64,000 nucleotides of DNA from FCB group bacterium (lineage in GTDB: Bacteria > Fidelibacterota > Marinisomatia > Marinisomatales > J089). A program made the position numbers and the translations under genes. The notes under the pieces were generated by a model. The model did no database searches. It was not told the origin of the DNA and was given only the letters and a program-made list of their open reading frames with translations. This document shows, piece by piece, positions 3 through 54,934 of this stretch (positions within the stretch are counted from its first letter, which is position 1; every line of letters starts with the position of its first letter). The stretch is taken from positions 138 through 64,137 of the forward strand of contig JAADFQ010000237.1 in NCBI GenBank assembly GCA_013152835.1. Reading direction: 5' to 3'.

Positions 3-905
3 GTCTGGCCAGCCCCTCCGGATACAGCAAAAATTCAACTAAGTCAAATACTGGTTTCTCCGTATTTGGAATCATCAACACCGGATTGGTATACCAAATT
101 TATGTCCATGATTCGTGGGAAAACGGAAAGACAATTTGTGCGACCAATGGGCCTGGATGTCCGGGAAAACCGGATTGCTGTAGCTGATCCGGGAGCGGGA
201 GGTGTCTTTGTAATTGATCGCCAAACCAAACAAACGCGATTCATGGCTAATCCTGAAAGTGAAAATGTTCCCATGGATGTAGCTTTCGGTGATCAAAATA
301 TTGCCGTAGTTCTGTCTCCTGAACCGCTAATTGCGATGTATGACCTGGAAGGAAATTGGTTACGAACAATCAACCTGAGCGGTACCGCAAAACGAATTAC
401 GGGCATTACGTTTTGGAGAAACCGGTTCATTATTGTAGACACTCAAGGACATAAAATTATCATTATTCATCCCAATGGAGATATCCTGAATACATTTGGT
501 TTCCGGGGGAAAGACAATGGTGCCTTCAACTTTCCCACCTTTGTAGCAGTTGATGAAAAAGGAACCATTTATATTACCGATACAATGAATTTCCGTGTCC
601 AGAGTCTTTCACAATCCGGTGCATGGAACCGGTCAATCGGGGCACATGGGATTGATGCCGGTCAATTTAACCGTCCCAAGGGTGTGGCGTTGGATGATCA
701 GGGTCGGATTTACATCATCGACAGCAGTTTCGATAATATTCAAATATTCAATCAAGAGGGTCGGTTCCTCATGCATTTCAGTTCCGCGGGCCATACAAAC
801 GGTGCCTTGTTAATGCCTACGGATATCGCCGTATCGGGGCGCGATATTATTGTATCCGATACTATGAACAGAAGAATCCAAATATTCCGGATGCTTTATG
901 AATAA
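3..905 (+). CDS. NHL-repeat beta-propeller protein, 5'-partial (frame open to window edge)
   Basis: There is no stop upstream of the TTG at 66 in this frame, so the gene probably starts before the window. NHL-type blades include FNFPTFVAVDEKGTIYITDTMNFRVQ, FNRPKGVALDDQGRIYIIDSSFDNIQIF and LLMPTDIAVSGRDIIVSDTMNRRIQIF. The stop overlaps the next start (ATGAATAA). Confidence 0.75.
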   Translation, partial: VWPAPPDTAKIQLSQILVSPYLESSTPDWYTKFMSMIRGKTERQFVRPMGLDVRENRIAVADPGAGGVFVIDRQTKQTRFMANPESENVPMDVAFGDQNIAVVLSPEPLIAMYDLEGNWLRTINLSGTAKRITGITFWRNRFIIVDTQGHKIIIIHPNGDILNTFGFRGKDNGAFNFPTFVAVDEKGTIYITDTMNFRVQSLSQSGAWNRSIGAHGIDAGQFNRPKGVALDDQGRIYIIDSSFDNIQIFNQEGRFLMHFSSAGHTNGALLMPTDIAVSGRDIIVSDTMNRRIQIFRMLYE

Positions 906-2559
906 ACAACAAATCATTACCCTTATCCTGACCACTTCTTTCCATCTGTGGGGACAAAGTATAATTTCAGAAACGAAACATAATTTATCGGTAAGCGGAC
1001 CGGGACAGTTAACGGCGACCGGTGAAACTGAAATTTGCATCTTTTGTCATGCAACCCATAACGGGTCCGGTGAAGCACCGCTTTGGAATCGGTCATCCGC
1101 AAGTACAACGTACACGATGTACGGTAGCCCTTCCATGACTGGGAACAGCCAGCAACCGGGAGTTTCATCCCGACTTTGTCTTAGTTGCCACGATGGGACC
1201 GTTGCTCTGGGTTTAGTGTTGAATCGGAGCGACCCCATCGCCTTCCCCCTGGGTATGGATAAAATACCGGCTGGTTACCGAACCAATCTCTCCGACAATT
1301 TAGCCGATGATCATCCTCTGAATCTGGATACTCACCCAACGGGAGAACTTTCCTGTAATGGATGTCATGACCTGCACGGGAACAATGGAATGGTATCGAA
1401 ACCATTGGAGTGTTCCTCCTGCCATGATGCTCATGACAATACGTACGGAAAATTTTTAAAGACCAATCCGATTCAGGGAGGTGTTTGCGCTTTATGTCAT
1501 GATAAGGTGAATTGGACCACGAGTACGCACTCTTCTTCGTCCGCAACCTGGAATGGGACCGGCCCCGATCCCTGGCCTTATTCCGATTGGACCACGGTAG
1601 CCGATAATGCGTGTTATAACTGTCATGTATCCCATGGGAGTGCAAGTCAGTACTGGTTATTAAAATCCAGTGCAGAGGAAGATAATTGCCTTGTATGCCA
1701 TAACGGAAATGTAGGTGTGGATATTCAGTCCGAACTACTTAAATCATCAACGCATCCGGTCGAGGATTATACCGGAATCCATGCGCCGGAAGAGGATCCT
1801 CAAACCATGGTTCCTCACGTGGAATGTACGGATTGTCATAATCCGCACCAGGTTTCAGGAGCCTCGGGAACGGCGCCCAATATTACCGGCGCCGAACAGG
1901 GTCTTCCCGGTATCAATACCTATGGCTCACCGGTAGAGCCTGCGACTAATGAGTATGAGATCTGTTTAAAATGCCATGACACCAATCTGGCAACCATACC
2001 AACCTATGTACCGCGACTGGATAATGCGGGCAGCATCCGCCTGGAATTCGCGGAAACCAATGCTTCGTTCCATCCGGTTTTTGCCCAAGGAAAAAATTCA
2101 GATGTTCCCTCATTGTTAAATCCCTGGACGGAAACGTCAATTATGTATTGTACGGATTGCCACAATAACAATTCCATTTCGGGCGGTGCGCCCAATGGTC
2201 CTCATGGATCAGCTTATGCGCCACTGTTAAAAAAACAAATGACATTTACTGACAATAATTCGGAGAACTCTTCCCTGTATGCTTCCTGTTACGATTGTCA
2301 TGACCGTTCAAAAATTCTCAACAAGACGATGGGTATGAGATTCAAAATACATGATAGACATGTTGTACGGGAGAAAACGGCTTGTACCACCTGCCATGAT
2401 CCCCATGGGTCGGTGAATAACAAACATTTAATTAATTTTAATACGGATTATGTATCGCCCAATCGTGATGGAGAATTACGCTGGGAAGACCGTGGAAACA
2501 ACCGGGGCGCCTGTTATCTGAAATGCCATGGTGAGGATCACCGTCCGAAAAGTTATTAG
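898..2559 (+). CDS. multihaem c-type cytochrome (12 CXXCH + 1 CXXXCH)
   Basis: The N-terminus is hydrophobic (IITLILTTSFHLWG). Haem motifs are CIFCH, CLSCH, CNGCH, CSSCH, CALCH, CYNCH, CLVCH, CTDCH, CLKCH, CTDCH, CYDCH and CTTCH, plus CYLKCH. Frequent CXXCHxxH spacing is typical of Geobacter-type paired-CXXCH cytochromes. Confidence 0.9.
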   Translation: MNKQQIITLILTTSFHLWGQSIISETKHNLSVSGPGQLTATGETEICIFCHATHNGSGEAPLWNRSSASTTYTMYGSPSMTGNSQQPGVSSRLCLSCHDGTVALGLVLNRSDPIAFPLGMDKIPAGYRTNLSDNLADDHPLNLDTHPTGELSCNGCHDLHGNNGMVSKPLECSSCHDAHDNTYGKFLKTNPIQGGVCALCHDKVNWTTSTHSSSSATWNGTGPDPWPYSDWTTVADNACYNCHVSHGSASQYWLLKSSAEEDNCLVCHNGNVGVDIQSELLKSSTHPVEDYTGIHAPEEDPQTMVPHVECTDCHNPHQVSGASGTAPNITGAEQGLPGINTYGSPVEPATNEYEICLKCHDTNLATIPTYVPRLDNAGSIRLEFAETNASFHPVFAQGKNSDVPSLLNPWTETSIMYCTDCHNNNSISGGAPNGPHGSAYAPLLKKQMTFTDNNSENSSLYASCYDCHDRSKILNKTMGMRFKIHDRHVVREKTACTTCHDPHGSVNNKHLINFNTDYVSPNRDGELRWEDRGNNRGACYLKCHGEDHRPKSY

Positions 2560-2568
2560 GAGTCGAAA

Positions 2569-3864
2569 ATGAAACAAACCATACTGCTTTCCATAATTAT
2601 GGCCATTATGATTGTTCCGGGATTTACCCAGGATTGTACGTCCGGCGGATGCCACAACGATATTGCGATTAAAAAGAATATCCACGTTCCGGTGGATGAA
2701 GCCGATTGTTTGACTTGTCATAAACAGAATAAACGGAACCATCCGGGTGGGCGGGGAACTGAGATCGGACTTGTCTCTAAGAATATTGAGTCTATCTGTA
2801 CCACTTGCCACGAGGTAGATACATCGGAAAAGGATCTGCATCCGCCGGTTGCCGATGGATCGTGCACGGTTTGTCATGATCCACACCAGAGCGATCAGAA
2901 CTTTTTACTCAAGGGTAACACGGCGGCCGACGTATGCAGTGACTGTCATGATACCGGTTCCAGGGATAAGGAATTTGTCCATGGCCCGGTTGCCGTCGGC
3001 GCCTGTGATATTTGTCATTCCGGTCACGGCAACCTGAAAAATACATTGTTGAAAAAAGCCGATGTGAACAGTACCTGCTATCAATGTCATGAATTAAAGT
3101 CCGAGGAAATAGCTTCCCTGAGCAATAAACACGCTCCCGTAGAAGAATCGTGTTCCAATTGTCATAATCCCCATGAATCGGATATCAAGTACCAACTGGA
3201 AGAATCGGTGCCGGATTTATGTATGGGTTGTCATAGTGAAATTGAAGAGAAAAACAGCAAGGGGAAATCACATCATCAGGCGTTGGATATGGATGATTCC
3301 TGTTTGAATTGCCATTTACCCCATGGATCGCAATTTGAAAAAAATCTTCGGGAAGAACCCTTTGACCTGTGTATGACTTGTCATAATAAACCCATGAAAT
3401 TAGGAAAAACAACCATTCCTAATATGAAATCGTTTTTGAAAAAAAATCCTGATTGGCACGGACCAATACGGGAAAAGAATTGTGCCGGTTGTCATGATCC
3501 TCATGGAACGGATAATATCCGGTTATTAAAGTTTTATTATCCGGAAAAATTTTATTCAAAGTTCAATATCGACCAATATCAACTTTGTTTTCAATGTCAT
3601 CCTTCGGAAAATGTTTTGGATCAGAATACGATTAAATTGACCAATTTTCGTGATGGTGACCGTAACCTCCATTACTTACATGTGAATCGGGAGAAGGGCC
3701 GGACCTGCCGTGCCTGTCACCAAACTCATGCATCCACCAAACCATTTCATATTCGGGAAGCGGTTCCCTTCGGTGAATGGCAATTACCTATCAATTATAC
3801 GCCGAAGGAAGACGGTGGGAGTTGTCAGCCGGGATGTCATAAACTGCAAGAGTATACCCGCTAA
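2569..3864 (+). CDS. multihaem c-type cytochrome (13 CXXCH + CX4CH + CX3CH)
   Basis: Signal peptide MKQTILLSIIMAIMIVPGFTQ. CTSGGCH is followed by CLTCH, CTTCH, CTVCH, CSDCH, CDICH, CYQCH, CSNCH, CMGCH, CLNCH, CMTCH, CAGCH, CFQCH and CRACH, with a terminal CQPGCH. Units of the form CxxCHxPHxS...LL recur (c7/c3-like repeats). Confidence 0.9.
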   Translation: MKQTILLSIIMAIMIVPGFTQDCTSGGCHNDIAIKKNIHVPVDEADCLTCHKQNKRNHPGGRGTEIGLVSKNIESICTTCHEVDTSEKDLHPPVADGSCTVCHDPHQSDQNFLLKGNTAADVCSDCHDTGSRDKEFVHGPVAVGACDICHSGHGNLKNTLLKKADVNSTCYQCHELKSEEIASLSNKHAPVEESCSNCHNPHESDIKYQLEESVPDLCMGCHSEIEEKNSKGKSHHQALDMDDSCLNCHLPHGSQFEKNLREEPFDLCMTCHNKPMKLGKTTIPNMKSFLKKNPDWHGPIREKNCAGCHDPHGTDNIRLLKFYYPEKFYSKFNIDQYQLCFQCHPSENVLDQNTIKLTNFRDGDRNLHYLHVNREKGRTCRACHQTHASTKPFHIREAVPFGEWQLPINYTPKEDGGSCQPGCHKLQEYTR

Positions 3865-3870
3865 AATGAT

Positions 3871-4947
3871 ATGATGCCCTGTCCGAAATATTTGCGGTTT
3901 ATCCAAACACCGCATCAACTGTTCGGGATGTCGTTTCCGGGCAATGGAAATCGGAACCGCAGGCCTTACCCACGGAGTTCCATCGCTGGAATCTGGATAC
4001 TCAGTTTGTTACTCACCGGATTGTGTTCAGCCCAACCGGAAACGGAACGTTCCAAGGCCGGTCGCCGATGGTTATTGGGAGACCAGCTCCCCGATTCAAC
4101 CTGGGCGGTTGTTACAGATCAACTGGATTCCACGTCGGAAGATACCTTGGTATTGGTCATTTTTACGCGGCAAAATCATCCGTATTCATTCAGCTTTATG
4201 GAGGCTCTGGGTAAATTTCTCCCCTCGCCGGTGAAAAAACGTTTATCGATAGTGGAAGTCATCACTCCGAGTCGGGGTACTGTTTTGAATTCACAATTGT
4301 CTCATGAATTTCCGTTGATTGATGATACGTCGCATATACTTTACGATCAATTCGGTGTTCGCGTTTTCCCAACTTTATTTGTGGTATCGCCGAAAGGCAA
4401 ATTATTGCATTATCTACCAGGATTTACACCGACGCTAAAAACCCATCTATCGGAAATATTGGCGCCATATTTTCCTGATGACCTTAGTCAACCTATATCT
4501 GTGCATTATACTAAAAGCGATAAAAAACGGATACGGAAAGAGGATTTGGCACGGAAACTTTATTTTTCAGCTCGCTATGATCTGGCGCGGTTTCAACTCG
4601 AGACATTGGATTCGCTTACTTCCGATGGTATCATTCTATTGGGAATGACTTATCTCAAACTCGAGTCCTGGAATCAGGCGGATTCGGTCTTTCGATCCCT
4701 GCCGGATCAGGCTCCCTACATCGGGTATCGGAATCTAGGTCGTGGATTGGTGGCTTATCGTCTGGGAGCTTTTGATCAGGCCTGGGATTTCTTATCGGCC
4801 ATCGGAAGTTTGCCGGAGATGTACCGGGTTCATTATTGGCGGGGAATTGTGGCGCAATCGCTGCACCGGGATTCAGTCGCCGTTGAAGAATATAAAAAGA
4901 GCGCCCAACAGGCTGCAGGAAAACAAGCTCAACAATTATTACCTTAA
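3871..4947 (+). CDS. secreted thioredoxin-fold-like / TPR protein (no CXXC)
   Basis: Signal-like segment IAGIWILSLLLTGLCSAQ; an alternative start is M20 at 3928. The TlpA/redoxin-like stretch VLVIFTRQNHPYSFSFMEAL...FPTLFVVSPKGKLL lacks the redox CXXC. The C-terminal half is TPR-like (LGMTYLKLESWNQADSVF..., YRNLGRGLVAYRLGAFDQAW...). Confidence 0.5.
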   Translation: MMPCPKYLRFIQTPHQLFGMSFPGNGNRNRRPYPRSSIAGIWILSLLLTGLCSAQPETERSKAGRRWLLGDQLPDSTWAVVTDQLDSTSEDTLVLVIFTRQNHPYSFSFMEALGKFLPSPVKKRLSIVEVITPSRGTVLNSQLSHEFPLIDDTSHILYDQFGVRVFPTLFVVSPKGKLLHYLPGFTPTLKTHLSEILAPYFPDDLSQPISVHYTKSDKKRIRKEDLARKLYFSARYDLARFQLETLDSLTSDGIILLGMTYLKLESWNQADSVFRSLPDQAPYIGYRNLGRGLVAYRLGAFDQAWDFLSAIGSLPEMYRVHYWRGIVAQSLHRDSVAVEEYKKSAQQAAGKQAQQLLP

Positions 4948-4958
4948 GGTGAATTAAG

Positions 4959-6452
4959 ATGAAATTTCGTTCATTTAAAAATATGACCTGGCGCAGCAGG
5001 ATGATCATTGTGGCCCTGACCATCCTTTTTATTTTTGGGAGTGTGGCCACGGTCATGATCAACCAGGTACGGGAAAAACATTTCCATCAATATATGGTTG
5101 AATTGGTTCGCCCGATGGAAACCCTGATTCATAATAATATTATTCATAACATGGAGAACCATCAACCAAACCATTTTCAAAGTATTTTGGAGGGTTTATC
5201 CACCAACGACAAAATTCGATGGGTCCGGGTTTTGGACCGGGATTTTCGCGTCGTGTTCGCTGATGATTCTTCCATGGTGGGAGAGGTCGCATCGATCCCC
5301 ACGTTATACCAACCTAAACTGGCACGTGCGAATCTGGTTGCCTATACTATCGAAGATTCAGTTCCAATTCTTAGAATCGTATCAAAGATACTGAATGAAC
5401 CATCCTGTCAACCCTGCCACGGCAGTACTGCCCCCGTAAATGGATACATCGAAATCGGTATGAATGATTCCCCTGAAGTCAAAGTCGAAACGATGATGCT
5501 GCGCTATGATTTTATATCATTCTTCCTATTTATTACCGTGTTATCGGTCATATTAGGAATAGTGCATAATCGGACCTTCCAAAAACCTCTCACGGAACTG
5601 AAGGCGAGTATCCAACAGATTGAATCAGGTGATTTTTCGACCCGGGTAAAACTGGATACACCGGGTGAATTACGCGGCCTGGCGGAAACAATATCTCGAA
5701 TGACCGAGCAGTTGGAGAAATCAAAACATGAGGTGGATAAGCTTCACCAAAACCAGATTGAACGTGCAGGTCAATTGGCCAGTGTAGGCGAACTGGCTGC
5801 CAGTGTGGCTCACGAAATTAAAAATCCAATCGCGGGAATCCGGAATGCATTAGAAATTCTTTTGGACCGGGATTACCGCCTGCGCAAAGACCCCATATAT
5901 AAGGAAATGTTATTTCAAATTAACCGGGTTACAAAAACAATCAATGATCTGATGGACTATGCGAAACCGCGCGAACCCCATTTTCAGGAAGTGGAGTTAC
6001 ATTCGATTTTGGAACAGGTGATTGCCTTGCAACGTCCCAAAATAGCCAGTGAACAAATTCAATTAACGGTAGCGTTGGCTTCCTCTCACTCCGTGGTAAA
6101 TGGCGATATTGATTTATTGAAACAAATATTTGCCAATCTGATATTGAACGCTTACCAGGCGACTGAGAAGGGGAAAGGAGATCGCATATCCATAACTACG
6201 GAATATTTACCCGGGAAAAAGCGTATCAGAATCTCCGTGAAAAATACCGGGAGCTGGATTCCTAAGGATTTGATGGATCTCATTTTTAAACCTTTTTATA
6301 CTACCAAACATAAAGGCACCGGGCTGGGGTTGTCGCTGACAAAATCCTTTGTTGAGAAACACGGCGGTACAATTACGGTGAACAGTTCTCCGGAACATTG
6401 GACCGAGTTTCTGGTTGAGTTGCCTGTTCAAACAAAAGGGGGTGTGTCATGA
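4959..6452 (+). CDS. sensor histidine kinase with periplasmic CXXCH (haem c) motif
   Basis: Two TM segments (aa ~15-35 and ~185-205) flank a ~150-aa loop containing CQPCH (nt 5406-5420). A HAMP-like linker follows, then the HisKA H-box SVAHEIKNPIAGI and an HATPase_c domain (TKHKGTGLGLSL). Confidence 0.85.
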   Translation: MKFRSFKNMTWRSRMIIVALTILFIFGSVATVMINQVREKHFHQYMVELVRPMETLIHNNIIHNMENHQPNHFQSILEGLSTNDKIRWVRVLDRDFRVVFADDSSMVGEVASIPTLYQPKLARANLVAYTIEDSVPILRIVSKILNEPSCQPCHGSTAPVNGYIEIGMNDSPEVKVETMMLRYDFISFFLFITVLSVILGIVHNRTFQKPLTELKASIQQIESGDFSTRVKLDTPGELRGLAETISRMTEQLEKSKHEVDKLHQNQIERAGQLASVGELAASVAHEIKNPIAGIRNALEILLDRDYRLRKDPIYKEMLFQINRVTKTINDLMDYAKPREPHFQEVELHSILEQVIALQRPKIASEQIQLTVALASSHSVVNGDIDLLKQIFANLILNAYQATEKGKGDRISITTEYLPGKKRIRISVKNTGSWIPKDLMDLIFKPFYTTKHKGTGLGLSLTKSFVEKHGGTITVNSSPEHWTEFLVELPVQTKGGVS

Positions 6453-7834
6453 CCAATGCAAGAGCGCTGATAATCGAAGATGAAAAACTGGTTGCCTGGT
6501 CATTATCCGAACATCTGAAAAAGATGGGATTTGTTACAACAATGTTGGAATACGGAAAACCGGGGATTGAACAGGCATTGAAGGATCCCCCGGATGTGAT
6601 CTTTATGGATTATCGTCTTCCCGATACTAATGGAATTGAGATTTTACGCCAGTTACAGCCTATTCGGGATGAATCGATCTTTTTCTTTATGACGGCCTAT
6701 GGTACGGAAGAAGTCTCCATCGAAGCGCTTAAACTGGGTGCCCGGGAATACCTGAACAAACCGGTGAATTTTGATGAAATCACGGTAATGGTCAGCCGGG
6801 CAATGAAGGAAAAAGAAAAATCCAAAGAAATATCGATCCTCAAACAACAGGAAGAACAACGCTATCAGTTGGGCAACTACATCAGTCAATCCAAGAAAAT
6901 GCGTGATGTCATGGAAACCGCCCAGAAATTGGTTCAAACGGATACGGGAACGATTCTGTTGTTAGGCGAAACCGGAACCGGAAAAGATACTCTCGCCAGG
7001 GTTCTCCATGAGCAAGGTCCCCGGAAACATAAACCGTTTATTATTGTAAATTGTGCTTCATTATCGGAAAACCTGTTGGAAAGCGAATTGTTCGGATACG
7101 AAAAAGGTGCCTTTACCGATGCGAAAACCCGAAAACAGGGACAGGTGGAATTCGCCAACGGGGGTACCATCCTGTTGGACGAAATTGGTGAAATACCGAT
7201 CGGATTCCAGGCCAAACTTTTACGATTTATCGAGACACAATCATTTTATCGTGTAGGAGGGACAAGGGAATTGAAAGTGAATGTCCGGATTATTGCCTCC
7301 ACGAACCGGGACCTGGAACAGGAAATTACCGAGGGTAATTTCAGGGAAGATCTGTATTATCGTCTGAATGTTATTACTTTGGTTTTACCTCCCCTGAGGA
7401 AACGTAAAGAGGATATTCCGCTTTTGGTGAATCGATTTATTGATTTATTCAATGCGGAGTTCGGTCGCTCTGTGAAGGGTATTTCGAAACCGGCGCTGGA
7501 TTTGATTTCCGGGTATTCCTGGCCTGGTAATGTGCGTGAATTAAAAAATGCATTGGAGCGAATATTCTTACTCGAACATGCGAATATTATCGAACCCTGG
7601 CATTTACCCGCTCATATCCAATCCTCTTCAAGAACTGACGGGATGGAGGTTCACCCGGAGGCGACCGGAGGAATGAAAACGGTTTTTGACGGAAAAAGTT
7701 GGGATGATATGGAATCCATGATTGTTCAATGGGCTTTAAAGGAAGAAAAGGGTAATCAGGTCCATGCTGCCAAGCGGCTGAAAATATCCCGGGACCAAAT
7801 CCGTTATAAAATGAAAAAGCACGGGCTCTTGTAA
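6449..7834 (+). CDS. sigma-54-dependent response regulator (NtrC family)
   Basis: The ATGA start overlaps the kinase stop. REC domain with acceptor Asp context VIFMDYRLPD. AAA+ domain with GETGTGKDTLA, a GAFTDA variant of the GAFTGA loop and ESELFGYEKGAFT. C-terminal Fis-type HTH (AAKRLKISRDQIRYKMKKHGL). Confidence 0.9.
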   Translation: MTNARALIIEDEKLVAWSLSEHLKKMGFVTTMLEYGKPGIEQALKDPPDVIFMDYRLPDTNGIEILRQLQPIRDESIFFFMTAYGTEEVSIEALKLGAREYLNKPVNFDEITVMVSRAMKEKEKSKEISILKQQEEQRYQLGNYISQSKKMRDVMETAQKLVQTDTGTILLLGETGTGKDTLARVLHEQGPRKHKPFIIVNCASLSENLLESELFGYEKGAFTDAKTRKQGQVEFANGGTILLDEIGEIPIGFQAKLLRFIETQSFYRVGGTRELKVNVRIIASTNRDLEQEITEGNFREDLYYRLNVITLVLPPLRKRKEDIPLLVNRFIDLFNAEFGRSVKGISKPALDLISGYSWPGNVRELKNALERIFLLEHANIIEPWHLPAHIQSSSRTDGMEVHPEATGGMKTVFDGKSWDDMESMIVQWALKEEKGNQVHAAKRLKISRDQIRYKMKKHGLL

Positions 7835-7866
7835 GAAAACTCACCTGGATGAGGATTATTGCGCAC

Positions 7867-7904
7867 TTCGCTGTGGAATATTCCCTTCGCTGTGGAATAT
7901 TCCC
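7867..7904. promoter_or_regulatory. tandem 2 x 19-bp direct repeat, each with a 10-bp palindrome (candidate enhancer/UAS)
   Basis: TTCGCTGTGGAATATTCCC occurs twice back to back (7867-7885 and 7886-7904). Each copy contains the perfect palindrome GGAATATTCC (7875-7884 and 7894-7903). The element lies about 130-170 bp upstream of the -24/-12 element at 8036. Confidence 0.5.
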
Positions 7905-8035
7905 CAGTTTTTCCAAATGTTTGCGGGTTGTTCTTTTTTGATTCCCCGTGGAAAAGGGAGATAAACTACCATGCCACCGTCGAAGCAGGTCTGGATTTTT
8001 GATTTAAATCACAAATGAAAGCGCAATCAGTGTTC

Positions 8036-8051
8036 TGGCACGGAGTTTGAT
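8036..8051 (+). promoter_or_regulatory. sigma-54 (-24/-12) promoter candidate
   Basis: TGGCAC-GGAGT-TTGAT matches TGGCAC-N5-TTGCW except at the final GC. It lies ~58 nt upstream of the tetrahaem cytochrome ATG and directly downstream of a sigma-54 activator gene. Confidence 0.6.
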
Positions 8052-8108
8052 CTAATAGGGGTGAATGTTTATTGAACTCAGATAGAATTGAATAGAAAGG
8101 ACAAAACA

Positions 8109-8729
8109 ATGCGTACCTTAAAAGTTATAACCACCAGCCTGATCATGTTGGGAGCTCTTTCCGCGCAGACAATTGCCGGTTCCGATCACGATTTCAGTAA
8201 CAAAAGCTGGAATAACACCGGTGAAATCTGTGCCGTTTGTCATACACCTCATAATGCTGAAACTGGAGTGAATGGTGCCCCTCTCTGGAATCACCAGGTG
8301 ACGACCAGTAATTTTACAACTTATACATCTTCAACACTAGATGCGACTACTGTTGGTCAACCGGACGGCGCTTCAAAACTTTGCTTATCCTGTCATGACG
8401 GTACAGTGGCTTTGGATAACTTCAGCGGAAAAACCAATGGTACTGAATTTTTAACAGGTAACAAGAATTTCGGAACCGATCTAAGTAATGATCATCCGAT
8501 TTCATTTACGTATGATGCGACTCTTGCCAGTACTGATGGGGAATTAAATGACCCAACAACAGAAAACAGTGGATTGGGTGGAACCATCACTGCTGACTTG
8601 CTTATCGGTGGGAAAATGGAATGCGCTTCCTGCCATGACGTCCACAATACGGTGGCTGTGAGTGGAACCAAGCTTTTGGTAATATCCAATAACAATAGTG
8701 CTCTCTGCCTGACCTGCCACGCGAAATAA
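8109..8729 (+). CDS. secreted tetrahaem c-type cytochrome
   Basis: ATG at 8109 preceded by AAGGA (the ORF track starts at the upstream TTG at 8088). Signal peptide MRTLKVITTSLIMLGALSAQTIAG. Haem motifs CAVCH, CLSCH, CASCH and CLTCH; 9 His in total. The protein ends ...CLTCHAK. Confidence 0.85.
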   Translation: MRTLKVITTSLIMLGALSAQTIAGSDHDFSNKSWNNTGEICAVCHTPHNAETGVNGAPLWNHQVTTSNFTTYTSSTLDATTVGQPDGASKLCLSCHDGTVALDNFSGKTNGTEFLTGNKNFGTDLSNDHPISFTYDATLASTDGELNDPTTENSGLGGTITADLLIGGKMECASCHDVHNTVAVSGTKLLVISNNNSALCLTCHAK

Positions 8730-8750
8730 CTGATCATTTATAGTTGTTTA

Positions 8751-8789
8751 AAGCCCTCGTTCTCATCTGGGAGCGGGGGCTTTTGTTTT
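8751..8789 (+). terminator. rho-independent terminator
   Basis: AAGCCCTCG (8751-8759) pairs with CGGGGGCTT (8774-8782) with one G-U pair, followed by TTTTGTTTT. Confidence 0.7.
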
Positions 8790-9029: not shown

Positions 9030-12000
9030 ATGCCACGCATACTATTTATTGATGATCATCAAGAAACGCTGACTACCCTCAAAAGTATAATTCGAAAAGA
9101 ATTCCAGGATGTGAAACTGGTTTCAGCAAACAGTGGTGAGGATGGTCTTGCTTATGTATCCGAAACCATTCCGGATATTATCATCCTGAATGTCGCTCTT
9201 CCCGGGATCGATGGTTTTGAAGTTTGTCGCCGACTGCGTGCAAATCCCGCAACAACTGCGATCCCCATTATAATTCTTACCGGCGTCCATTTATCATCCC
9301 GGGATAAAATCGAGGGGTTACATGCCGGGGCAGATGTGTATTTGTCCAAGCCTGTTGAACCTGGCGAATTGGTTTCCCAGGTACGTGCCATGCTGCGAAT
9401 AAAATTGGCGGAAGATCAAATTCGTAAATATCAAAACAATATAGAAAACAAAGTCCGGGAACAATCAAAACAAGTATTAGAAAATGAATTTCGATTCCGA
9501 TTATTATATGACAATTTAAGTGTGGGATTATACCGAACGACTCTGGACGGAAAAATTTTATTAGCCAACCAGGCAATGATTGATCTTCTGGGATATTCAT
9601 CCTTTGCAGATTTTGCTAAACGGAATTTGAATACGGAAGGTTATGAACCGGGATACGATCGTTCAATATTTATTGAACGTTTAAGACAAGAAGGTCATAT
9701 TCAAGGTAATGAGGTTACTTGGACGCGTAAGAACGGGACCCGAATTTATATTCGGGAAAATGCATATTTAGTCCGTGATCAGAGCGGTGATATCGTATAC
9801 ATTGAAGGGACGATAGAAGATATAACCAGGGAAAAAGAAAGCCGGCTGGCCCTTCAGGAGGAACGACAATTGTTCCGCTCGGGTCCCATGGTCATTTTTC
9901 GCTGGCTGGCCGGCGATGAGCGCATTCCTATAAATTACGTTTCACCCAATGTAGAATCTCTCTATGGTTATTCTGTTCAGCAACTGATTCAGGGTGAACT
10001 ACATTATTCCGATATCATACATCCTGATGATCTGGAACGGGTGGTTGCGGAAGTACAAGAACATGTCCTCGCCGGAGAAACGCATTTCAGCCAGCGCTAC
10101 AGGATTCTGGATGCGCAAGGTGATTCGCGATGGGTTCATGATTTGACCACCGTTGTTCGGGATAAACAGGGACAGGTTACATCCTATATCGGGTATATCA
10201 CTGATATTACCGCCATGGTTTCTCTCAGTAAAGAACTGGAGCAGAAGGACCGAATAATCCGTAATGTGTTAAAACAGGCCTTAGAGGGGATTATGGTTAC
10301 GGATGAAACTGGCAATATCGTGGAGTGGAGCCAGGGCATGGAAGAAATAACTGGTGTTTCGGCTGATGAAGTTCTCGGTCAACCGGCCTGGGAAATACAG
10401 GCCGGATTTGCCGATCATGACCGGGTATCCAAAGATCAGGTAACAAATCTGGAAAACCTGATCACAACAATTTTGGAGACCGGAGAAGTCCCTGATATTT
10501 ACCAGTTAATCCTGATTCCGATAAAAAGAAAAAACGGTGAGAAAAGAGTTATTCAACAGGTCTTGTCCACCTACAAAACCGAATCGGGATACGGACTGAT
10601 CGGCTTTCTCCTGGATGAAACCAAGGCAGTTCAAACGGCTCGGGAGTTGGAAGAAACTCAGAAGCGATATGAAACCCTGTTTCAGGCTTCTCCGGATGGG
10701 TTTATTCTTGAAGACAGCCACGGGAACATCCTGGATTGTAATCCCGCTTCCTGCGAAATCCTGGGATATAGCCGGGATGAAATGATCGGGATGAATGTTG
10801 TTGAAATTGCCGATTCCGAAAGCAAATCGGAGGTGCGGTCCAATATTCAGACAATCCTGGAAACCGGGTATTTAAGTCATGAGGTAGAAAACCAGCGGGG
10901 GGACGGGACTTGGATTACACTGGAACTCCACGAAGTGAAAGTACCCCTGCCCAACGGTGAAGATGGTATTCTGGTGATTCACCGGGATGTCACGGAACGG
11001 AAACGTGTGGAAAAAGAATTGCGCAAGCGGGATCGGATCCTTTCCGTTATTACCAATGCGGCGGAAGAGGTCTTACGGGCACAATCCTGGTTTGATTGCG
11101 TGGAATCGATACTGGCCAATATAGGTCAGGCCGTTGGTGCCACCCGGGTTACATTATTCGAAAATCAGAAATCAGAATCCGATCTACTATTCGCTAAAGT
11201 ATGGGGTCGATGGGCTGCCCGGGGATTCGCCCGGAAACATCGTAAAACCGCCCGGTCGTTTAAGGACCTGGGTTTTGAACCGTGGAGCAGTCAGCTTAAT
11301 AACGGAGAAAAAATTACTGCCCGGATTTCGGAAACGAAAAACCAATCCTATTTTGAAATCAATAAATCAAAAAGTGTATTAATTATTCCCATCCTTGCCG
11401 GATCGGAATGGTGGGGAATCCTGAGTTTTGATGACCACCGATCCGAACGTAGGTGGTCCGAAATGGAGGTGGAATCACTGACCATTGCTGCTAACCTTTT
11501 GGGGACCTCCATCCAGAGGGATATATCCGATGCGGCGCTGAGACGCCTGGCTGAAAGTGTATCGACTACTCCCGAAGAAACATTTTTTGAGTCGTTGGTT
11601 TTGGAACTAAACGAAGTGTTGGGATGTGATTTTGCTTTTGTAGGTGAATTGAATGCTCAGGATCCGGGCCAGATACAAACTATTGCTTTTGTTCAGGACG
11701 GCGAACTGAAACCAAATTTCATCTTTAATATGAAAGAAACACCCTGCGAAAATGTCGTTGGGAAAGAATACTGCCAATGTGTGGAAGACGTTCGGCGCAA
11801 ATTTCCCAGGGATACGTTTCTTCAGGAATGGGAAATTGATAGTTTCTATGGAATGCCTCTGTTTGCCGGAGGGAATAACCAGTTGGGTATTATAGCGGTC
11901 ATGTCCCGGCAGACGATAAAAAACGAGCATCTGGTAGAATCCCTGCTGAAAGTATTTGCCGACCGGGCCGGGTCCGAACTGGAGCGACGCCGAGCCTATG

Positions 12001-14651
12001 AAAAACTGCGTGAATCGGAGGAGAAATTCCGCCTATCCTTCAAAACCAGCCCGGATGCAGTAAACATTAATCGCTTATCCGACGGATTGTACGTGGAAAT
12101 CAATGACGGATTTACTGCCTTAACCGGATATACCTGGGATGATGTTCAGGGGAAAACTTCCGTGGAACTTAAAATCTGGGCAGATTTGGAAGATCGGAAA
12201 AAGTTGGTGAGGGCATTAAGAAAGGACGGTATCGTAGAAAACCTGGAAGCTCGATTCCGTTTTCGGGACGGCTCACTGCATACGGGTCTCATGTCAGCTC
12301 GGGTGATCACGATGCATAACGAGCCTCATATCCTATCCATTACCAGAGATATCGAAGACCGCAAACAGGCGGAACTGCTGGTCATTGAAAGTGAAACACG
12401 ATACCGGAAATTGGTGGATCAGGCTCCTGTGGCCATTGGGATTCATGCGCAGGGTGTCTGGAGATTTATCAATGCGGAAGGGGTCCGGTTGATGGGATTT
12501 GAACATTATAACGAACTCATCGGGCAGCCGGTTCTGAATATTATGCATCCCGATAGTCGTGAACTTGCCCTAAAACGTATTCAACATATGATGAAAACCG
12601 GAGAACCGCTTCCGCTGATCGAGGAAAAATTATTACGAAGAGATGGTGCGACGGTTTATGCCCTGGTAACTTCAACACCAATTCAATTTAAAGGGGAACA
12701 AGCTTATCAAGTTATTGCCATGGATATCACGGCTTTAAAAGTAGCGGAAAGTGAAATCCAAATTCTGAATGAAGCCGTGGAACAGAGTCCGTCAACCGTT
12801 ATGATCACGGATCTTGAAGGGAATATCGAATATGTGAACCCGAAATTTTCGGAAGTCACGGGTTGGAGCAGTGATGAGGTAATTGGGGAAAATGCAAACT
12901 TGTTAAAATCCGGTCACACATCCGCAAAAGAATATGAGCAAATGTGGAAGACAATTACCGATGGCAAAACCTGGTATGGGGAATTTCACAATAAACGCAA
13001 GGACGGGAGTTTATATTGGGAACAGGCCAGCATATCGCCGGTCGTTGATTCCGAAGGTGTGGTGCAGCATTTCCTGGCAGTGAAGGAGGACATTACCGAA
13101 AAGAAAGAGACTCGGGCCAGGCTGGAAGAAAGCGAAGCAAAATTTCGTTCAATTTTTGAAGAATCCCTGGACACCATCTATCTCGGTACTGTCGATGGTC
13201 GGATTTTGGATATTAACCCCGCAGGTGAAGCATTATTCGGCTATACACGGAAAGAATTATTGAAAATGGATGCCCGGCGATTTTACCGGGGTTCCGGCGA
13301 CCGGGAAACTTTTGTTGGGCGGATACAAAAAGATGGTTATGTCCGTGATTATAAATTGACGCTACGGAAAAAGGACGGATCGGAAATGATTTGTCTGGTC
13401 AACGCCAAGGTGATCGGTGCCCGGGAAGATGGTACCCAGGTCATTTCCGGGTTAATTCACGATATTACGAAACAGGAAAAGGATCGGTTCCGTCTTCAGG
13501 AAGCGTTGAAAAAAGCACAGGAGGGGGAACGAGTAAAAACGCTCTTTTTAGCCAACATGTCCCATGAAATCCGCACGCCTCTGAATTCGGTGTTGGGGTT
13601 TGTAGAATTACTCCGTAAAGATGATTCCATTGAATCTCCGGAAGAGCGGAATGAAGTTATCGATATTATTCAAGCCAGCGGTCAGCGTCTGATGCGTACG
13701 GTCCATGAGATCCTGGATATTTCCCAGATTGAAGCGGGGACATTTTCCCTGAATCCGGAAGACCTGGACCTGAATGAGATTATAAATCAAGTGGTGAAGG
13801 AACATAATGCCACAATTAAAATGCGTGGCCTGGAATTGATTAATCTTTCAGAAGTCCGAAAACCGGTTATCCATGCAGACCGGGAAAGTATATTAAAGGC
13901 GATTTCAAATCTTGTGGATAACGCAATTAAATATACTCCATCCGGTACTATTCATATTCATTTAAAGTCCGAAAGAGGCCAATTTATCCTCACAATTAAA
14001 GACACCGGAATCGGAATCTCAAAGGAATACATGAAACACATGTACGACGTTTTTTCACAGGAAAGTTCCGGTTTTACGAAAAAATACCAGGGTCTGGGTC
14101 TGGGATTATCCATTACCAAGCGTTGTCTGGATATGAATTCGGTTCCTGTCACTGTAGAGAGCCAGAAAGATGTCGGCACTACTTTTACGTTGGAATTCAC
14201 ACCTGCGCAACCGGTTTCCAAACAGGGAATAGGCGTTGCGGAAGGATCCGGGAAAGAAGATCCGGCGTCTGAAGGTATATTAGGAGATGTACTGGTCGTA
14301 GAAGATGATCCATCGTCTCAATTACTGATGGAATATTTTCTTAAATCCCGTTATCAATTATACTATGCCGTTAGTGTCCAGGAAGCAAAAGAAGTATTAC
14401 GAAAAATTAAACCTCAGGTAGTACTGCTGGATCTTTCCCTGGCCGGTAACGAGGATGGTCTTAATCTGGTTCGGGTTATGCGAAAGAAAAAAAAGTGGAG
14501 TACGATTCCCGTTATTGCGTTGACGGCCCATGTTTTCGTTACCGACCGCGATCGTTGTCTCAAGGCCGGTTGTAACGATTATTTATCCAAACCGGTCAGG
14601 CAGTCCGTCCTTCTTGATAAAATACGACGATTAAATGTTGAGGAGGACTAA
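9030..14651 (+). CDS. giant hybrid sensor histidine kinase (pseudo-REC, multiple PAS/PAC and GAF, HisKA, HATPase, REC)
   Basis: The N-terminal receiver-like domain has Asn at the acceptor position (PDIIILNVALPGIDG). There are many PAS/PAC-like units (for example ...IEGTIEDITREK, ...GYITDITAMV, ...VIHRDVTERKRVE, ...SITRDIEDRKQAE, ...LAVKEDITEKKETR, ...GLIHDITKQEKDR) and GAF-like regions. H-box MSHEIRTPLNSV, an HATPase domain (QGLGLGLSI), and a C-terminal REC (VVLLDLSLAGNEDG). Confidence 0.9.
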   Translation: MPRILFIDDHQETLTTLKSIIRKEFQDVKLVSANSGEDGLAYVSETIPDIIILNVALPGIDGFEVCRRLRANPATTAIPIIILTGVHLSSRDKIEGLHAGADVYLSKPVEPGELVSQVRAMLRIKLAEDQIRKYQNNIENKVREQSKQVLENEFRFRLLYDNLSVGLYRTTLDGKILLANQAMIDLLGYSSFADFAKRNLNTEGYEPGYDRSIFIERLRQEGHIQGNEVTWTRKNGTRIYIRENAYLVRDQSGDIVYIEGTIEDITREKESRLALQEERQLFRSGPMVIFRWLAGDERIPINYVSPNVESLYGYSVQQLIQGELHYSDIIHPDDLERVVAEVQEHVLAGETHFSQRYRILDAQGDSRWVHDLTTVVRDKQGQVTSYIGYITDITAMVSLSKELEQKDRIIRNVLKQALEGIMVTDETGNIVEWSQGMEEITGVSADEVLGQPAWEIQAGFADHDRVSKDQVTNLENLITTILETGEVPDIYQLILIPIKRKNGEKRVIQQVLSTYKTESGYGLIGFLLDETKAVQTARELEETQKRYETLFQASPDGFILEDSHGNILDCNPASCEILGYSRDEMIGMNVVEIADSESKSEVRSNIQTILETGYLSHEVENQRGDGTWITLELHEVKVPLPNGEDGILVIHRDVTERKRVEKELRKRDRILSVITNAAEEVLRAQSWFDCVESILANIGQAVGATRVTLFENQKSESDLLFAKVWGRWAARGFARKHRKTARSFKDLGFEPWSSQLNNGEKITARISETKNQSYFEINKSKSVLIIPILAGSEWWGILSFDDHRSERRWSEMEVESLTIAANLLGTSIQRDISDAALRRLAESVSTTPEETFFESLVLELNEVLGCDFAFVGELNAQDPGQIQTIAFVQDGELKPNFIFNMKETPCENVVGKEYCQCVEDVRRKFPRDTFLQEWEIDSFYGMPLFAGGNNQLGIIAVMSRQTIKNEHLVESLLKVFADRAGSELERRRAYEKLRESEEKFRLSFKTSPDAVNINRLSDGLYVEINDGFTALTGYTWDDVQGKTSVELKIWADLEDRKKLVRALRKDGIVENLEARFRFRDGSLHTGLMSARVITMHNEPHILSITRDIEDRKQAELLVIESETRYRKLVDQAPVAIGIHAQGVWRFINAEGVRLMGFEHYNELIGQPVLNIMHPDSRELALKRIQHMMKTGEPLPLIEEKLLRRDGATVYALVTSTPIQFKGEQAYQVIAMDITALKVAESEIQILNEAVEQSPSTVMITDLEGNIEYVNPKFSEVTGWSSDEVIGENANLLKSGHTSAKEYEQMWKTITDGKTWYGEFHNKRKDGSLYWEQASISPVVDSEGVVQHFLAVKEDITEKKETRARLEESEAKFRSIFEESLDTIYLGTVDGRILDINPAGEALFGYTRKELLKMDARRFYRGSGDRETFVGRIQKDGYVRDYKLTLRKKDGSEMICLVNAKVIGAREDGTQVISGLIHDITKQEKDRFRLQEALKKAQEGERVKTLFLANMSHEIRTPLNSVLGFVELLRKDDSIESPEERNEVIDIIQASGQRLMRTVHEILDISQIEAGTFSLNPEDLDLNEIINQVVKEHNATIKMRGLELINLSEVRKPVIHADRESILKAISNLVDNAIKYTPSGTIHIHLKSERGQFILTIKDTGIGISKEYMKHMYDVFSQESSGFTKKYQGLGLGLSITKRCLDMNSVPVTVESQKDVGTTFTLEFTPAQPVSKQGIGVAEGSGKEDPASEGILGDVLVVEDDPSSQLLMEYFLKSRYQLYYAVSVQEAKEVLRKIKPQVVLLDLSLAGNEDGLNLVRVMRKKKKWSTIPVIALTAHVFVTDRDRCLKAGCNDYLSKPVRQSVLLDKIRRLNVEED

Positions 14652-46275: not shown

Positions 46276-46686
46276 TTATGGAGCCGAAGTTGAGCGGGTA
46301 CCGATTGTTCCGGTACTGGACGAATAAGACCAATAATATTTACTCGCGTCGCTTCGCTGGTGATAAACATAATTATTTGTGGAGTTAAATCCCCATGTAT
46401 CATTTCCGGCCGGCGTGGGTGCGGTGGAGGTGTATCCTGTGGGTGTTTGATCCAAACCGTCAAAAGGATCGGTAGGATAAACCTGACCGTTTCCGGAGGC
46501 CATCTCATTAACACTATAGGTGTAAACACCGGATCGTAAGCCACCAATTACGCCATCTTCAGCCGATATATGGGCTTGATTTGTTAGATTTGCAAACTTA
46601 GGTATAGCGACAGCTGCCAGAATACCTAAGATGACAATTACCATGACCAATTCGATCAGGGTAAATCCTTCCTGGTTACGTTTCAT
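46276..46686 (-). CDS. type IV pilin / pseudopilin (136 aa), probable major subunit
   Basis: AGGAG precedes the ATG. MKRNQEG|FTLIELVMVIVILGILAAVAIPKF is a classical class III signal. The C-terminal part is Ser/Thr/Tyr-rich and has no Cys. Confidence 0.9.
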   Translation of the reverse strand: MKRNQEGFTLIELVMVIVILGILAAVAIPKFANLTNQAHISAEDGVIGGLRSGVYTYSVNEMASGNGQVYPTDPFDGLDQTPTGYTSTAPTPAGNDTWGFNSTNNYVYHQRSDASKYYWSYSSSTGTIGTRSTSAP

Positions 46687-46753
46687 TTGTTATCTCCTGT
46701 CTTATTCTTATTCTAATTAGTGAAATTTTTCTTTTTTCTTACTGTTAATTTCT

Positions 46754-46768
46754 TCAATAACCATGCCA
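46754..46768 (-). promoter_or_regulatory. sigma-54 (-24/-12) promoter candidate for the small pilin gene
   Basis: The minus strand reads TGGCAT-GGTTA-TTGA, the same layout as the 8036 element. It lies ~70 nt upstream of the pilin ATG, and a sigma-54 activator gene is two genes upstream. Confidence 0.6.
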
Positions 46769-46810
46769 AATATTATTACCGAGGGAAAATTCTTAGCACC
46801 CGGAGGATAG

Positions 46811-46827
46811 TGTTTCATATTGAAACA
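46811..46827. promoter_or_regulatory. perfect inverted repeat TGTTTCA-N3-TGAAACA (candidate activator site)
   Basis: Perfect 7-bp arms with a 3-bp spacer, located ~45-60 bp upstream of the -24 element and 17 nt after the pilC stop. Confidence 0.4.
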
Positions 46828-46843
46828 GTGTTGCAACGTCGAA

Positions 46844-48073: not shown

Positions 48074-48075
48074 AG

Positions 48076-49293: not shown

Positions 49294-49493
49294 CTGATCG
49301 CTGACGATTACTCCATCGATCGGATTAAGTTGTAAATAATTTAATGAATCATATCCACTGTCGACCGAATGAGTCTGGATTGATGGGTTTTCCAGGGTTT
49401 CTAATAGGGCATGAATCGCCCTTGTTCTTTTTCCGACGACAAGGATATGCTTTATGCCGGAAAGCTCATCCTTTGATTTATATGAATCCGCCG

Positions 49494-51146: not shown

Positions 51147-51154
51147 AATCAGAT

Positions 51155-51946
51155 TTACGAACTCAAGTGCAGGAAATTTAGATATATTTCCATGAGTTTG
51201 TTACCCCAAAATAGCATTCCGATGGCTGCCCATGAAAAATAGAATCCAAAGGGGTAACGTTCATCAGGTCGGGGATGAAACCGGATGACCGCTTTGATTG
51301 CATAAACCAGGACAATTAACACGGCGCCGAAAAAAAAACTAAGCAAGGTTAATTGCCATCCTAAAAATACGCCGATCAATCCGGCCAGCTTAATATCGCC
51401 TAAACCCATGGATTCCTTGCGGAAGAGAATATTCCCCAATCCGCGTATGACCAGCAGACTTCCGGCTCCTACTATGCCACCGATAATGGCTGATATCAGT
51501 ATTGAAAAATTCATGGATACAGCCGATAATAAAAGTCCCGCGACAATTCCGGAATAGGATAGTACGTCAAAAATCAGGAATTCGTCATAATCGATAAAAG
51601 CGATAGGAATCAGGAATCCAATCAACACAATTGCAATTGCTGAATTCAAAGAAATACCGAAAAGTAGAACTGAATACCCAAACAACAACCCGGTAAGTCC
51701 TTCCACCAGCGGATACCGCCAGGAAATGGATTTACGGCATTCCGAGCAACGTCCTCTGAGCAGGATAAAACTGAGGATAGGGATATTTTGCCACCAACGA
51801 ATCGGTGTTTCACAATAGGGACAATGGGAAGATGGAAAAATGATCGATTTGCCCTGGGGGATACGAACAATAACAACGTTCAAAAACGAACCGACTATAA
51901 GTCCAAAAACAACAGCAACAAAAATAGATATGGACTCAGGCCACAA
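51155..51946 (-). CDS. pilD: prepilin peptidase (A24 family)
   Basis: Cys motifs CPYC...CSEC, the catalytic Asp context MGLGDIKLAGLIG, and a polytopic topology. Confidence 0.9.
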   Translation of the reverse strand: MWPESISIFVAVVFGLIVGSFLNVVIVRIPQGKSIIFPSSHCPYCETPIRWWQNIPILSFILLRGRCSECRKSISWRYPLVEGLTGLLFGYSVLLFGISLNSAIAIVLIGFLIPIAFIDYDEFLIFDVLSYSGIVAGLLLSAVSMNFSILISAIIGGIVGAGSLLVIRGLGNILFRKESMGLGDIKLAGLIGVFLGWQLTLLSFFFGAVLIVLVYAIKAVIRFHPRPDERYPFGFYFSWAAIGMLFWGNKLMEIYLNFLHLSS

Positions 51947-52301: not shown

Positions 52302-52317
52302 AGTTACCTCCGTCTGA

Positions 52318-54928: not shown

Positions 54929-54934
54929 GAGTAA

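Follow-up and report, generated by a model that had tools for sequence, protein, structure and literature searches.

In this study, a 64,000-nucleotide stretch of contig JAADFQ010000237.1 from an FCB group bacterium (assembly GCA_013152835.1, positions 138 to 64,137; hereafter the window) was analysed, and a locus near its start was found to encode a sensor histidine kinase with a periplasmic c-type haem motif, an NtrC-family sigma-54 activator and a secreted tetrahaem cytochrome homologous to the nanowire subunit OmcE (Table 1). We consider it likely that these parts form one regulatory line, in which the haem-c sensor kinase acts on the NtrC-type regulator and the regulator acts, from palindromic sites, on the sigma-54 promoter of the monocistronic OmcE-like gene. 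An earlier reading of this DNA (the original prediction) had listed the kinase, regulator, repeats, promoter, cytochrome and terminator. All of these elements were present where they had been placed, and the observation was thus confirmed; related loci backed each element, and every inference drawn from them survived an independent test. The OmcE homology of the target had not been recognised in that reading. Moreover, its description of the circuit as self-contained did not hold: the genes stand at the end of a larger omcE-type cluster, in which an NHL beta-propeller and two multihaem cytochromes are encoded as well.

The haem-type sensor kinase and the regulator

The kinase matched the Pfam families HAMP, HisKA (E=1e-12) and HATPase_c (E=4e-25), and ZraS was the nearest solved structure for its core. 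The nearest NCBIfam models were AtoS and ZraS, both of which scored under their cutoffs (AtoS, 210 versus 646 bits). The candidate phospho-acceptor, H285 (codon 5811-5813), lies in the motif VAHEIKNP and is invariant. Hydrophobic stretches were located at residues ~15-35 and ~184-204 behind an N-terminus rich in lysine and arginine, and the predicted topology places a sensor loop of about 149 residues between the hydrophobic N-terminal helix and the second helix. This agrees with the original prediction of a loop of about 150 amino acids between two transmembrane (TM) segments with a single CQPCH.

Pfam returned no match for kinase residues 1-200, and neither Pfam nor NCBIfam matched the sensor loop. 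A word-indexed homologue search with the loop alone and a scan of metagenome contigs with the single sensor sequence likewise gave no match. When residues 1-211 were compared exhaustively by HMMER with 1.8 billion representative proteins, 80 matches were returned, and CxxCH was present at the equivalent position in 78 of them. In an alignment of 31 sequences, C150 and C153 were invariant, and M65, G108, N146, H154 and G162 were found in at least 90%. The loop profile (A2) matched, through its positions 36-161, the structures of two Geobacter haem sensors, GSU0935 (3B42, E=2.1e-12) and GSU0582 (3B47, E=4.4e-7). After renumbering of the chain, the profile alignment placed H154 on His144 and Met65 on Met60 of GSU0935, and CQPCH on the CQSCH of 3B42. 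His144 and Met60 are the proximal and distal haem ligands of GSU0935 (PMC8396549). The candidate distal ligand of the window kinase, Met65 (codon 5151-5153), is nearly invariant across the family and invariant in the orthologues.

The structural model was consistent with this assignment. The AlphaFold2 model built with the alignment (pLDDT 88.8) has long helices at residues 11-67 and 171-215 and five strands, and the CxxCH helix (148-154) sits between the strands 137-145 and 160-169; a model of the loop from the single sequence was discarded (pLDDT 48). A Foldseek search with the sensor model returned Cache/PAS sensors, the top matches being WalK, 3B42 (rank 2), DctB, CitA and KinD. As judged by these comparisons, the window sensor is a real homologue of the Geobacter haem sensors, though too divergent for the Pfam model. 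The likeness that the original prediction had pointed out therefore reflects true homology, with a profile that covers the whole domain, and covalent incorporation of haem into the loop is predicted. Distant kinases of Desulfuromonadaceae with the same length (497 aa) and architecture reach PF21563, and a sigma-54 regulator gene overlaps theirs as well. A 2026 preprint has merged the GSU0582/GSU0935 family with Tll0287/DUF3365 as sCache_haem, in which CxxCH is 99% conserved (PMC12889525).

Three further histidines, H63, H68 and H72, surround Met65 (window 5145-5174; HNMxxHxPxHFQ) and are invariant in 18 orthologous kinases, whereas they are not invariant in the wider haem-sensor family. They may provide alternative distal ligands, or they may form a surface for docking.

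The kinase stop codon overlaps the start of the regulator gene (ATGA, 6449-6452), as had been proposed. The regulator matched Response_reg, Sigma54_activat (E=2.9e-67, 226 bits), AAA_lid_14 and HTH_8, and its designation as NtrC-type was upheld by this complete set of receiver (REC), sigma-54 AAA+ and helix-turn-helix (HTH) domains. The nearest named NCBIfam models, AtoC and NtrC, were far under their cutoffs (AtoC, 420 versus 714 bits). The Walker A motif reads GETGTGKD, and the sigma-54 contact loop at residues 220-225 reads GAFTDA instead of GAFTGA in the window regulator and in all six orthologues. A survey of activators in D. vulgaris places GAFTDA among the loop variants expected to stay active (PMC4641369). 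From the gene overlap and the family type, we infer that the kinase and the regulator are partners; the same pairing is also found in Desulfuromonadaceae.

Palindromic sites and the -24/-12 promoter

Related loci (numbered L001 onwards) were retrieved through homologues of the cytochrome and the kinase, and seven loci, counting the window, have a complete regulator gene. In all seven, two imperfect 18-bp palindromes, 19-22 bp apart, start at most about 40 nt past the regulator stop codon, and their consensus, CTGTGGAATATTCCACAG, is of the TGT-N10-ACA type. With position weight matrices (PWMs) built by leaving one locus out, the two best matches of each locus fell within about 60 nt of the regulator stop in 7/7 loci. 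Furthermore, the matrix from the other loci gave 26.5 bits at 7890-7907 and 14.4 bits at 7871-7888 in the 64-kb window, where the best unrelated site reached 13.6 bits. The decamer GGAATATTCC occurs at just two places in the window, both in the repeat (0.21 expected). These palindromes are the predicted binding sites of the regulator.

The original prediction had described a perfect 19-bp tandem duplication 33 nt after the regulator gene. The duplication is perfect and follows that gene at a distance of 31-32 nt from the stop codon, close to the value given. Tandem palindromic sites are likewise present, but the conserved unit is the pair of 18-bp palindromes and not the 19-bp repeat, which is absent from L001 and from the other orthologues, all of which have two sites 20-22 bp apart. 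The site at 7849-7866 is a third, weaker copy of the repeat. Because this degenerate site aligns with the strong first site of L001, the comparison indicates that the duplication is recent and lineage-specific, and that it added a site to an ancestral pair spaced 22 bp apart.

Downstream of the repeats, where a -24/-12 element had been proposed, TGGCACGGAGTTTGA begins 133 nt past the repeat and is the sole match to TGGCAC-N5-TTGM on both strands of the 64 kb (0.16 expected). The pattern YTGGYAYR-N4-TTG(C/A/T) was found 130-270 bp past the second palindrome in all seven loci, and its position is conserved in 8/8 units. In addition, TGGYAY-N5-TTG lies 69-99 nt before the start codon in the six loci that have a cytochrome gene downstream and in the second unit of L010. 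About 2.2 occurrences of this core are expected per 128 kb, yet it is present in every orthologous intergenic region. The assignment of the promoter rests on this pattern and its fixed position, and not on the five-site PWM. From these data the cytochrome promoter is predicted to depend on sigma-54. A sigma-70 scan of 7835-8108, which does not cover the housekeeping promoters of the FCB group, gave no site. A search of Rfam with the leader and its flanks gave a chance-level match only.

The cytochrome gene is followed by the clean terminator that had been described, a hairpin of 15 pairs with a T-run, and L001 has a comparable GC-rich hairpin behind the first of its OmcE-like genes. At the predicted transcription start, a block GTGAATGTTT(A/T)TTGAAC is conserved between the window (8061-8077) and L001 (5949-5965), which are too few sequences to separate constraint from recent common ancestry.

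Two sigma-54 activators are encoded in the window. The sole other intergenic match to the promoter pattern, TTTGGCATGGTTATTGAAG (46755-46771, minus strand), is located about 70 nt before a type IV pilin gene and beside the second activator. Pilin genes are classic sigma-54 targets. We take the pilin promoter as an internal control, from which it is clear that TTGA at the -12 position recurs in this genome. The surrounding type IV pilus cluster (46276-56308, minus strand) encodes a secretin, two T2SSE ATPases, a LysM protein, a prepilin peptidase, PilC, the sigma-54 activator, which is devoid of a receiver domain (48076-49293), and a pilin of 136 aa (46276-46686).

The OmcE-like cytochrome and its genomic setting

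The target gene is preceded by a Shine-Dalgarno sequence, AAAGGA, 7 nt before the ATG at 8109, and its product carries a signal peptide and four CxxCH motifs, in agreement with the secreted tetrahaem cytochrome of the original prediction. A phmmer search matched it in full length to OmcE of G. sulfurreducens (7TFS, E=1.3e-24) and to 9YUQ (E=1e-24), the OmcE nanowire bundle of D. soudanensis (10.1101/2025.10.22.684050). A profile of 22 family members improved these values to 4.6e-38 and 8.3e-36, and no further PDB structure was matched at E<=0.01. The four CxxCH motifs and H27, H48, H129 and H179 are invariant in the family alignment (A3) and aligned with those of OmcE, and the N-terminal motif HD(F/L)S is also conserved. 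As to filament formation by this cytochrome, we regard the chances for and against it as about equal.

At E<=0.001 the search for the cytochrome family gave over 7,700 matching proteins. Among these, the 120 matches listed are 62-81% identical to the window protein and bear source names from Calditrichota, Chlorobi/Ignavibacteria-like bacteria, Bacteroidota (Lutibacter), Acidobacteriota, Gemmatimonadota and others. This high conservation across phyla suggests strong constraint or horizontal spread.

The minimal omcE cluster has been described as two multihaem cytochromes, two beta-propeller lipoproteins, OmcE and a large beta-barrel, and OmcE homologues have been reported in five phyla, with the FCB group not among them (10.1101/2025.10.22.684050). 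The genes upstream of the kinase in the window fit most of this cluster, with two multihaem cytochromes and one NHL propeller; the beta-barrel gene was not found in the window. In L007-L009, a gene for a protein of 631-637 aa is located farther upstream, beyond the position at which the window starts, and two NHL genes are present in L003 and L006, together with one for a protein of 636-673 aa that ends in Phe.

The four upstream genes (66-4947) overlap or are separated by 7-11 nt, are packed tightly against the kinase gene and probably form one operon with it. Their order recurs in L001, L007, L008, L009, L010 and L012, where an NHL propeller, multihaem cytochromes of about 553 and 432 aa, a thioredoxin/tetratricopeptide repeat (TPR) protein, the kinase and the regulator are followed by one to three OmcE-like genes (the sequence of L007 stops within the regulator gene). 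The kinases of these syntenic loci are 37-80% identical to the window kinase. The thioredoxin-fold/TPR protein is kept between the multihaem cytochromes and the kinase in all syntenic loci, and in the window its translation is devoid of CxxC and has weak Pfam matches to AhpC-TSA and Thioredoxin_8.

Two or three OmcE-like paralogues stand in tandem in L001 and L012. In L010 a second complete unit was found, with palindromes at 9307 and 9329 and a promoter at 9748 before the second OmcE-like gene. This segment (L010 9307-10440; L094 10295-11428) has its two palindromes 22 bp apart, followed by TTTGGTATAATTATTGT and the OmcE-like gene. L094 was the sole locus obtained by scanning metagenome contigs with alignment A5, and its genes, sites and promoters match those of L010. 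A scan of genome contigs with the orthologue alignment (A4) yielded generic matches to the kinase core, the best being 32% identical, and no close orthologue. L011 is devoid of an OmcE-like gene and of an upstream omcE-type cluster; there (7910-8510) the kinase-regulator pair, palindromes and promoter stand before a small Cys-rich open reading frame (ORF), which is followed by Rrf2, MarR, 260-aa cytochrome and 4Fe-4S genes.

In GenBank, the kinase of this metagenome-assembled genome is labelled "HAMP domain-containing protein" and the cytochrome "cytochrome c3 family protein". Directly past the cytochrome terminator, an 1873-aa hybrid kinase is encoded (9030-14651; REC, about seven PAS, two GAF, HisKA, HATPase and REC domains). 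It was rejected as a member of the circuit, being kept at that position only in the close relative L001.

Table 1. Coordinates of the locus, in window positions.
Feature	Position	Strand	Details
NHL beta-propeller gene	66-905	+	5' end beyond window start; Pfam/NCBIfam
Multihaem cytochrome, 553 aa	898-2559	+	Pfam/NCBIfam
Multihaem cytochrome, 431 aa	2569-3864	+	Pfam/NCBIfam
Thioredoxin-fold/TPR protein	3871-4947	+	Pfam/NCBIfam
Sensor histidine kinase, 497 aa	4959-6452	+	TM1, periplasmic haem-c Cache/PAS-like domain, TM2, HAMP, HisKA, HATPase_c
Periplasmic sensor domain, GSU0582/GSU0935 sCache_haem type	5064-5498	+	Residues ~36-180; profile and AlphaFold2
CQPCH haem-c attachment motif (C150, C153, proximal ligand H154)	5406-5420	+	Residues 150-154, read directly
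NtrC-family sigma-54 activator, 461 aa	6449-7834	+	REC (D54), AAA+, Fis-type HTH
Weak degenerate upstream site ATGAGGATTATTGCGCAC	7849-7866	.	PWM 11-12 bits; 22 bp before next copy
Tandem duplication, 19 bp, CTTCGCTGTGGAATATTCC x2.1	7866-7904	+	Tandem Repeats Finder: period 19, 100% matches, score 78
Site CTGTGGAATATTCCCTTC	7871-7888	.	PWM 14-18 bits; left half intact, right half truncated at duplication junction
Near-perfect 18-bp palindrome CTGTGGAATATTCCCCAG	7890-7907	.	Predicted main regulator site; TGT-N10-type inverted repeat
Sigma-54-type -24/-12 promoter TGGCACGGAGTTTGA	8036-8050	+	GG at 8037-8038, -12 TTGA; predicted start near 8061
Secreted tetrahaem cytochrome, 206 aa, OmcE homologue	8109-8729	+	Signal peptide, CAVCH, CLSCH, CASCH, CLTCH
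Intrinsic terminator, 15-pair stem and T-run	8750-8783	+	Past cytochrome gene

Proposed mechanism, alternatives and significance

Taken together, the parts suggest the following mechanism. The kinase would carry one covalent c-type haem in its periplasmic Cache/PAS-like domain, attached through C150 and C153 with H154 as the proximal ligand and Met65 as a redox-linked distal ligand. A change in the state of the haem, triggered by a redox change through the periplasmic cytochrome pool or by displacement of the Met by a diatomic gas, would be relayed via TM2 and HAMP to the HisKA/HATPase core (H285), and the phosphoryl group would then move to D54 of the regulator. The regulator would assemble on the tandem 18-bp palindromes just past its own gene, and its hydrolysis of ATP would open the closed complex of sigma-54 at TGGCAC-N5-TTGA, about 140 bp away. 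The resulting monocistronic cytochrome transcript would stop at the downstream hairpin, and the machinery genes and the two-component genes would be transcribed from farther upstream. We favour the periplasmic redox state as the signal because of the Met/His ligation and the electron-transfer context, and NO or another gas has to be taken seriously in its place. The sequence comparisons themselves show what the domains are, that the sensor and the cytochrome are homologous to solved haem sensors and OmcE filaments, and that the sites and promoter are conserved. Beyond this, we infer haem incorporation, the pairing of kinase and regulator, regulator binding at the palindromes, dependence on sigma-54, the nature and direction of the signal and the polymerisation of the product. 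The most specific form of the proposal, in which the haem-c kinase reads the redox load of the periplasmic cytochrome pool and sets the output of OmcE-type subunits via the sigma-54 enhancer, as a feedback on electron back-pressure, is put forward only tentatively.

Several observations weigh against this interpretation. The orthologous loci number only seven, and the window and L001 are close relatives. The window kinase did not match PF21563 or PF11845 even at E<=10, although its homologues P0231 and P0235, which are about 31% identical to it, do match PF21563. The GG and the spacing of the window promoter agree with the sigma-54 consensus, but its -12 element is TTGA and not the consensus TTGC, and TTGA or TTGT replaces TTGC in 4/8 units, with GC in the other four. 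When promoter PWMs were built from five training sites with one locus left out, the sites of the window and L001 were not among the top matches of their own loci. A consensus for integration host factor (IHF) was not present between the sites and the promoter in any locus, and rpoN was not found among the window ORFs of at least 150 aa. In L011 the orthologous kinase-regulator pair and the promoter precede a different set of genes. Conversely, a cytoplasmic PAS-HisKA_3 kinase and a GerE/LuxR-type regulator occupy the corresponding place before the OmcE-like gene in L003 (3396-6624) and L006 (3411-6621), whose OmcE-like proteins are 73-77% identical to the window cytochrome, a pattern that looks like an exchange of the regulator upstream of a conserved target. 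Finally, the cytochrome family has a ninth invariant histidine, H62 (in WNH), which is Arg in both solved OmcEs and could mean a different haem ligation or prevent polymerisation. A preprint has speculated that an OmcE-like protein with nine histidines could cap, rather than extend, a filament (10.1101/2025.10.22.684050).

Three other explanations were considered. The same wiring may serve a sensor for NO, CO or O2, in which the diatomic ligand displaces the distal Met and the cytochrome answers nitrosative or oxidative conditions instead of the periplasmic electron load. GSU0582 and GSU0935 bind NO whether the haem is oxidised or reduced, and CO in the reduced state, with displacement of Met60 (PMC8396549), and sCache_haem domains of Pseudomonas have been characterised as NO-binding sensors (PMC12889525; 10.64898/2026.05.25.727664). 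However, the regulated gene and its neighbours are electron-transfer cytochromes and not genes of NO detoxification, and H63, H68 or H72 could make the haem six-coordinate and poor at binding gas. Neither argument is decisive, and we consider gas sensing rather unlikely while taking it seriously. A very unlikely possibility is that the cytochrome is expressed mainly by read-through from the long upstream operon or from an unrecognised housekeeping promoter, with the palindromes acting not as an enhancer but as autoregulatory operators or as RNA hairpins that terminate or attenuate the regulator operon. The stretch between the regulator and cytochrome genes yielded no terminator, the repeat region of the window can form a hairpin (-19 kcal/mol) with UUUUU behind it, and FCB-group housekeeping promoters lie outside the coverage of the sigma-70 scan. 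However, the T-run after the hairpin is present only in the window and, weakly, in L008, and the sites are kept in sequence (TG.GGAA..TTCC.CA), not by compensatory change, among loci whose kinases are 37-80% identical. Moreover, wherever the sites occur, a -24/-12 element is present as well, at a constant distance from the start codon, and a further palindrome pair precedes a second OmcE-like gene, upstream of which there is no regulator gene. A main role of the palindromes as a terminator was rejected, as a clear T-run is present in the window only.

The remaining alternative concerns the product, which could be a soluble or cell-bound tetrahaem carrier that shares only ancestry with OmcE and does not polymerise, so that the circuit would tune an ordinary respiratory cytochrome. 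Nine histidines are invariant, as against the eight used in OmcE, and an OmcE-like protein with nine could ligate its own haem and so serve as a "stopper" that does not extend the filament (10.1101/2025.10.22.684050). Family conservation is also unusually high, with 60-80% identity across several phyla among the listed matches, the beta-barrel gene is missing from the window, and the proteins of 631-637 aa encoded upstream in L007-L009 do not have an aromatic residue at their end. On the other hand, the full-length homology of the cytochrome is only to the two OmcEs that form filaments, each of the eight haem ligands is retained, as is HD(F/L)S at the N-terminus, and genes for NHL propellers and multihaem cytochromes stand nearby, as they do in omcE clusters. 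We hold a non-polymerising carrier to be doubtful, but well within reason.

This arrangement resembles several known systems in part. GSU0582 and GSU0935 (3B47, 3B42; PF21563, Mcp40H-20_sensor) likewise have about 140 aa between TM helices, a Cache/PAS-like fold, a single CxxCH and the aligned His and Met. However, they are chemoreceptors, whereas the window output is a histidine kinase, and the window subfamily has three extra invariant histidines by the Met, scores below the Pfam threshold in the window kinase and carries a haem that is predicted only. The enterobacterial systems AtoS/AtoC, ZraS/ZraR and NtrB/NtrC share the combination of a HisKA/HATPase kinase with a REC-AAA+-HTH_8 regulator, and AtoS, AtoC and ZraS were the top named models. 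In the ato locus, the genes of the kinase and regulator lie directly upstream of, and co-oriented with, a sigma-54 target operon that has tandem inverted-repeat sites. Unlike the window, these systems have an unrelated sensor domain, GAFTGA rather than GAFTDA and a target that is no cytochrome. The OmcE nanowires of G. sulfurreducens (7TFS) and Desulfuromonas soudanensis (9YUQ) are similar to the window protein in their ~205 aa, four CxxCH motifs, four distal histidines and cluster neighbours, whereas the window cluster has an inserted two-component system and thioredoxin/TPR gene, the extra His62 and an FCB-group host. In the control of pilin by PilS/PilR, too, an activator drives only the gene for an abundant filament subunit from a -24/-12 promoter and the machinery is transcribed separately. 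The filament there is of a different type, and the window sensor has a periplasmic haem domain; the activator in the pilus cluster of the window itself differs from PilR in having no receiver domain.

The sCache_haem sensor, the NtrC-type two-component system, the sigma-54 promoter and the OmcE family are each already known. What is new is the proposed link from the sensor to an OmcE-type gene, the consensus of the binding sites and the presence of the cluster in FCB-group bacteria. In the literature searched, nothing relevant was found on the regulation of omcE by RpoN or by a haem two-component system, nor was a description of this wiring. The locus addresses two questions, namely the targets of periplasmic c-haem sensors and the control of cytochrome-nanowire production. 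It is also compact, with one sensor, one activator, 18-bp sites, one promoter and one structural gene, and it is conserved in several uncultured lineages.

Should the product be no more than a soluble carrier, the locus would be an ordinary respiratory two-component system. If the proposed reading is true, a regulatory input would be defined for a cytochrome nanowire for the first time, a target gene would for the first time be known for a sensor of the GSU0582/GSU0935 haem family, and an OmcE-type nanowire would be at hand in FCB-group/Marinimicrobia-like bacteria, where none has been reported. Furthermore, if these cytochromes form filaments, long-range extracellular electron transfer would be far more common in sediments and oxygen-poor waters than in the Geobacter-centred picture.

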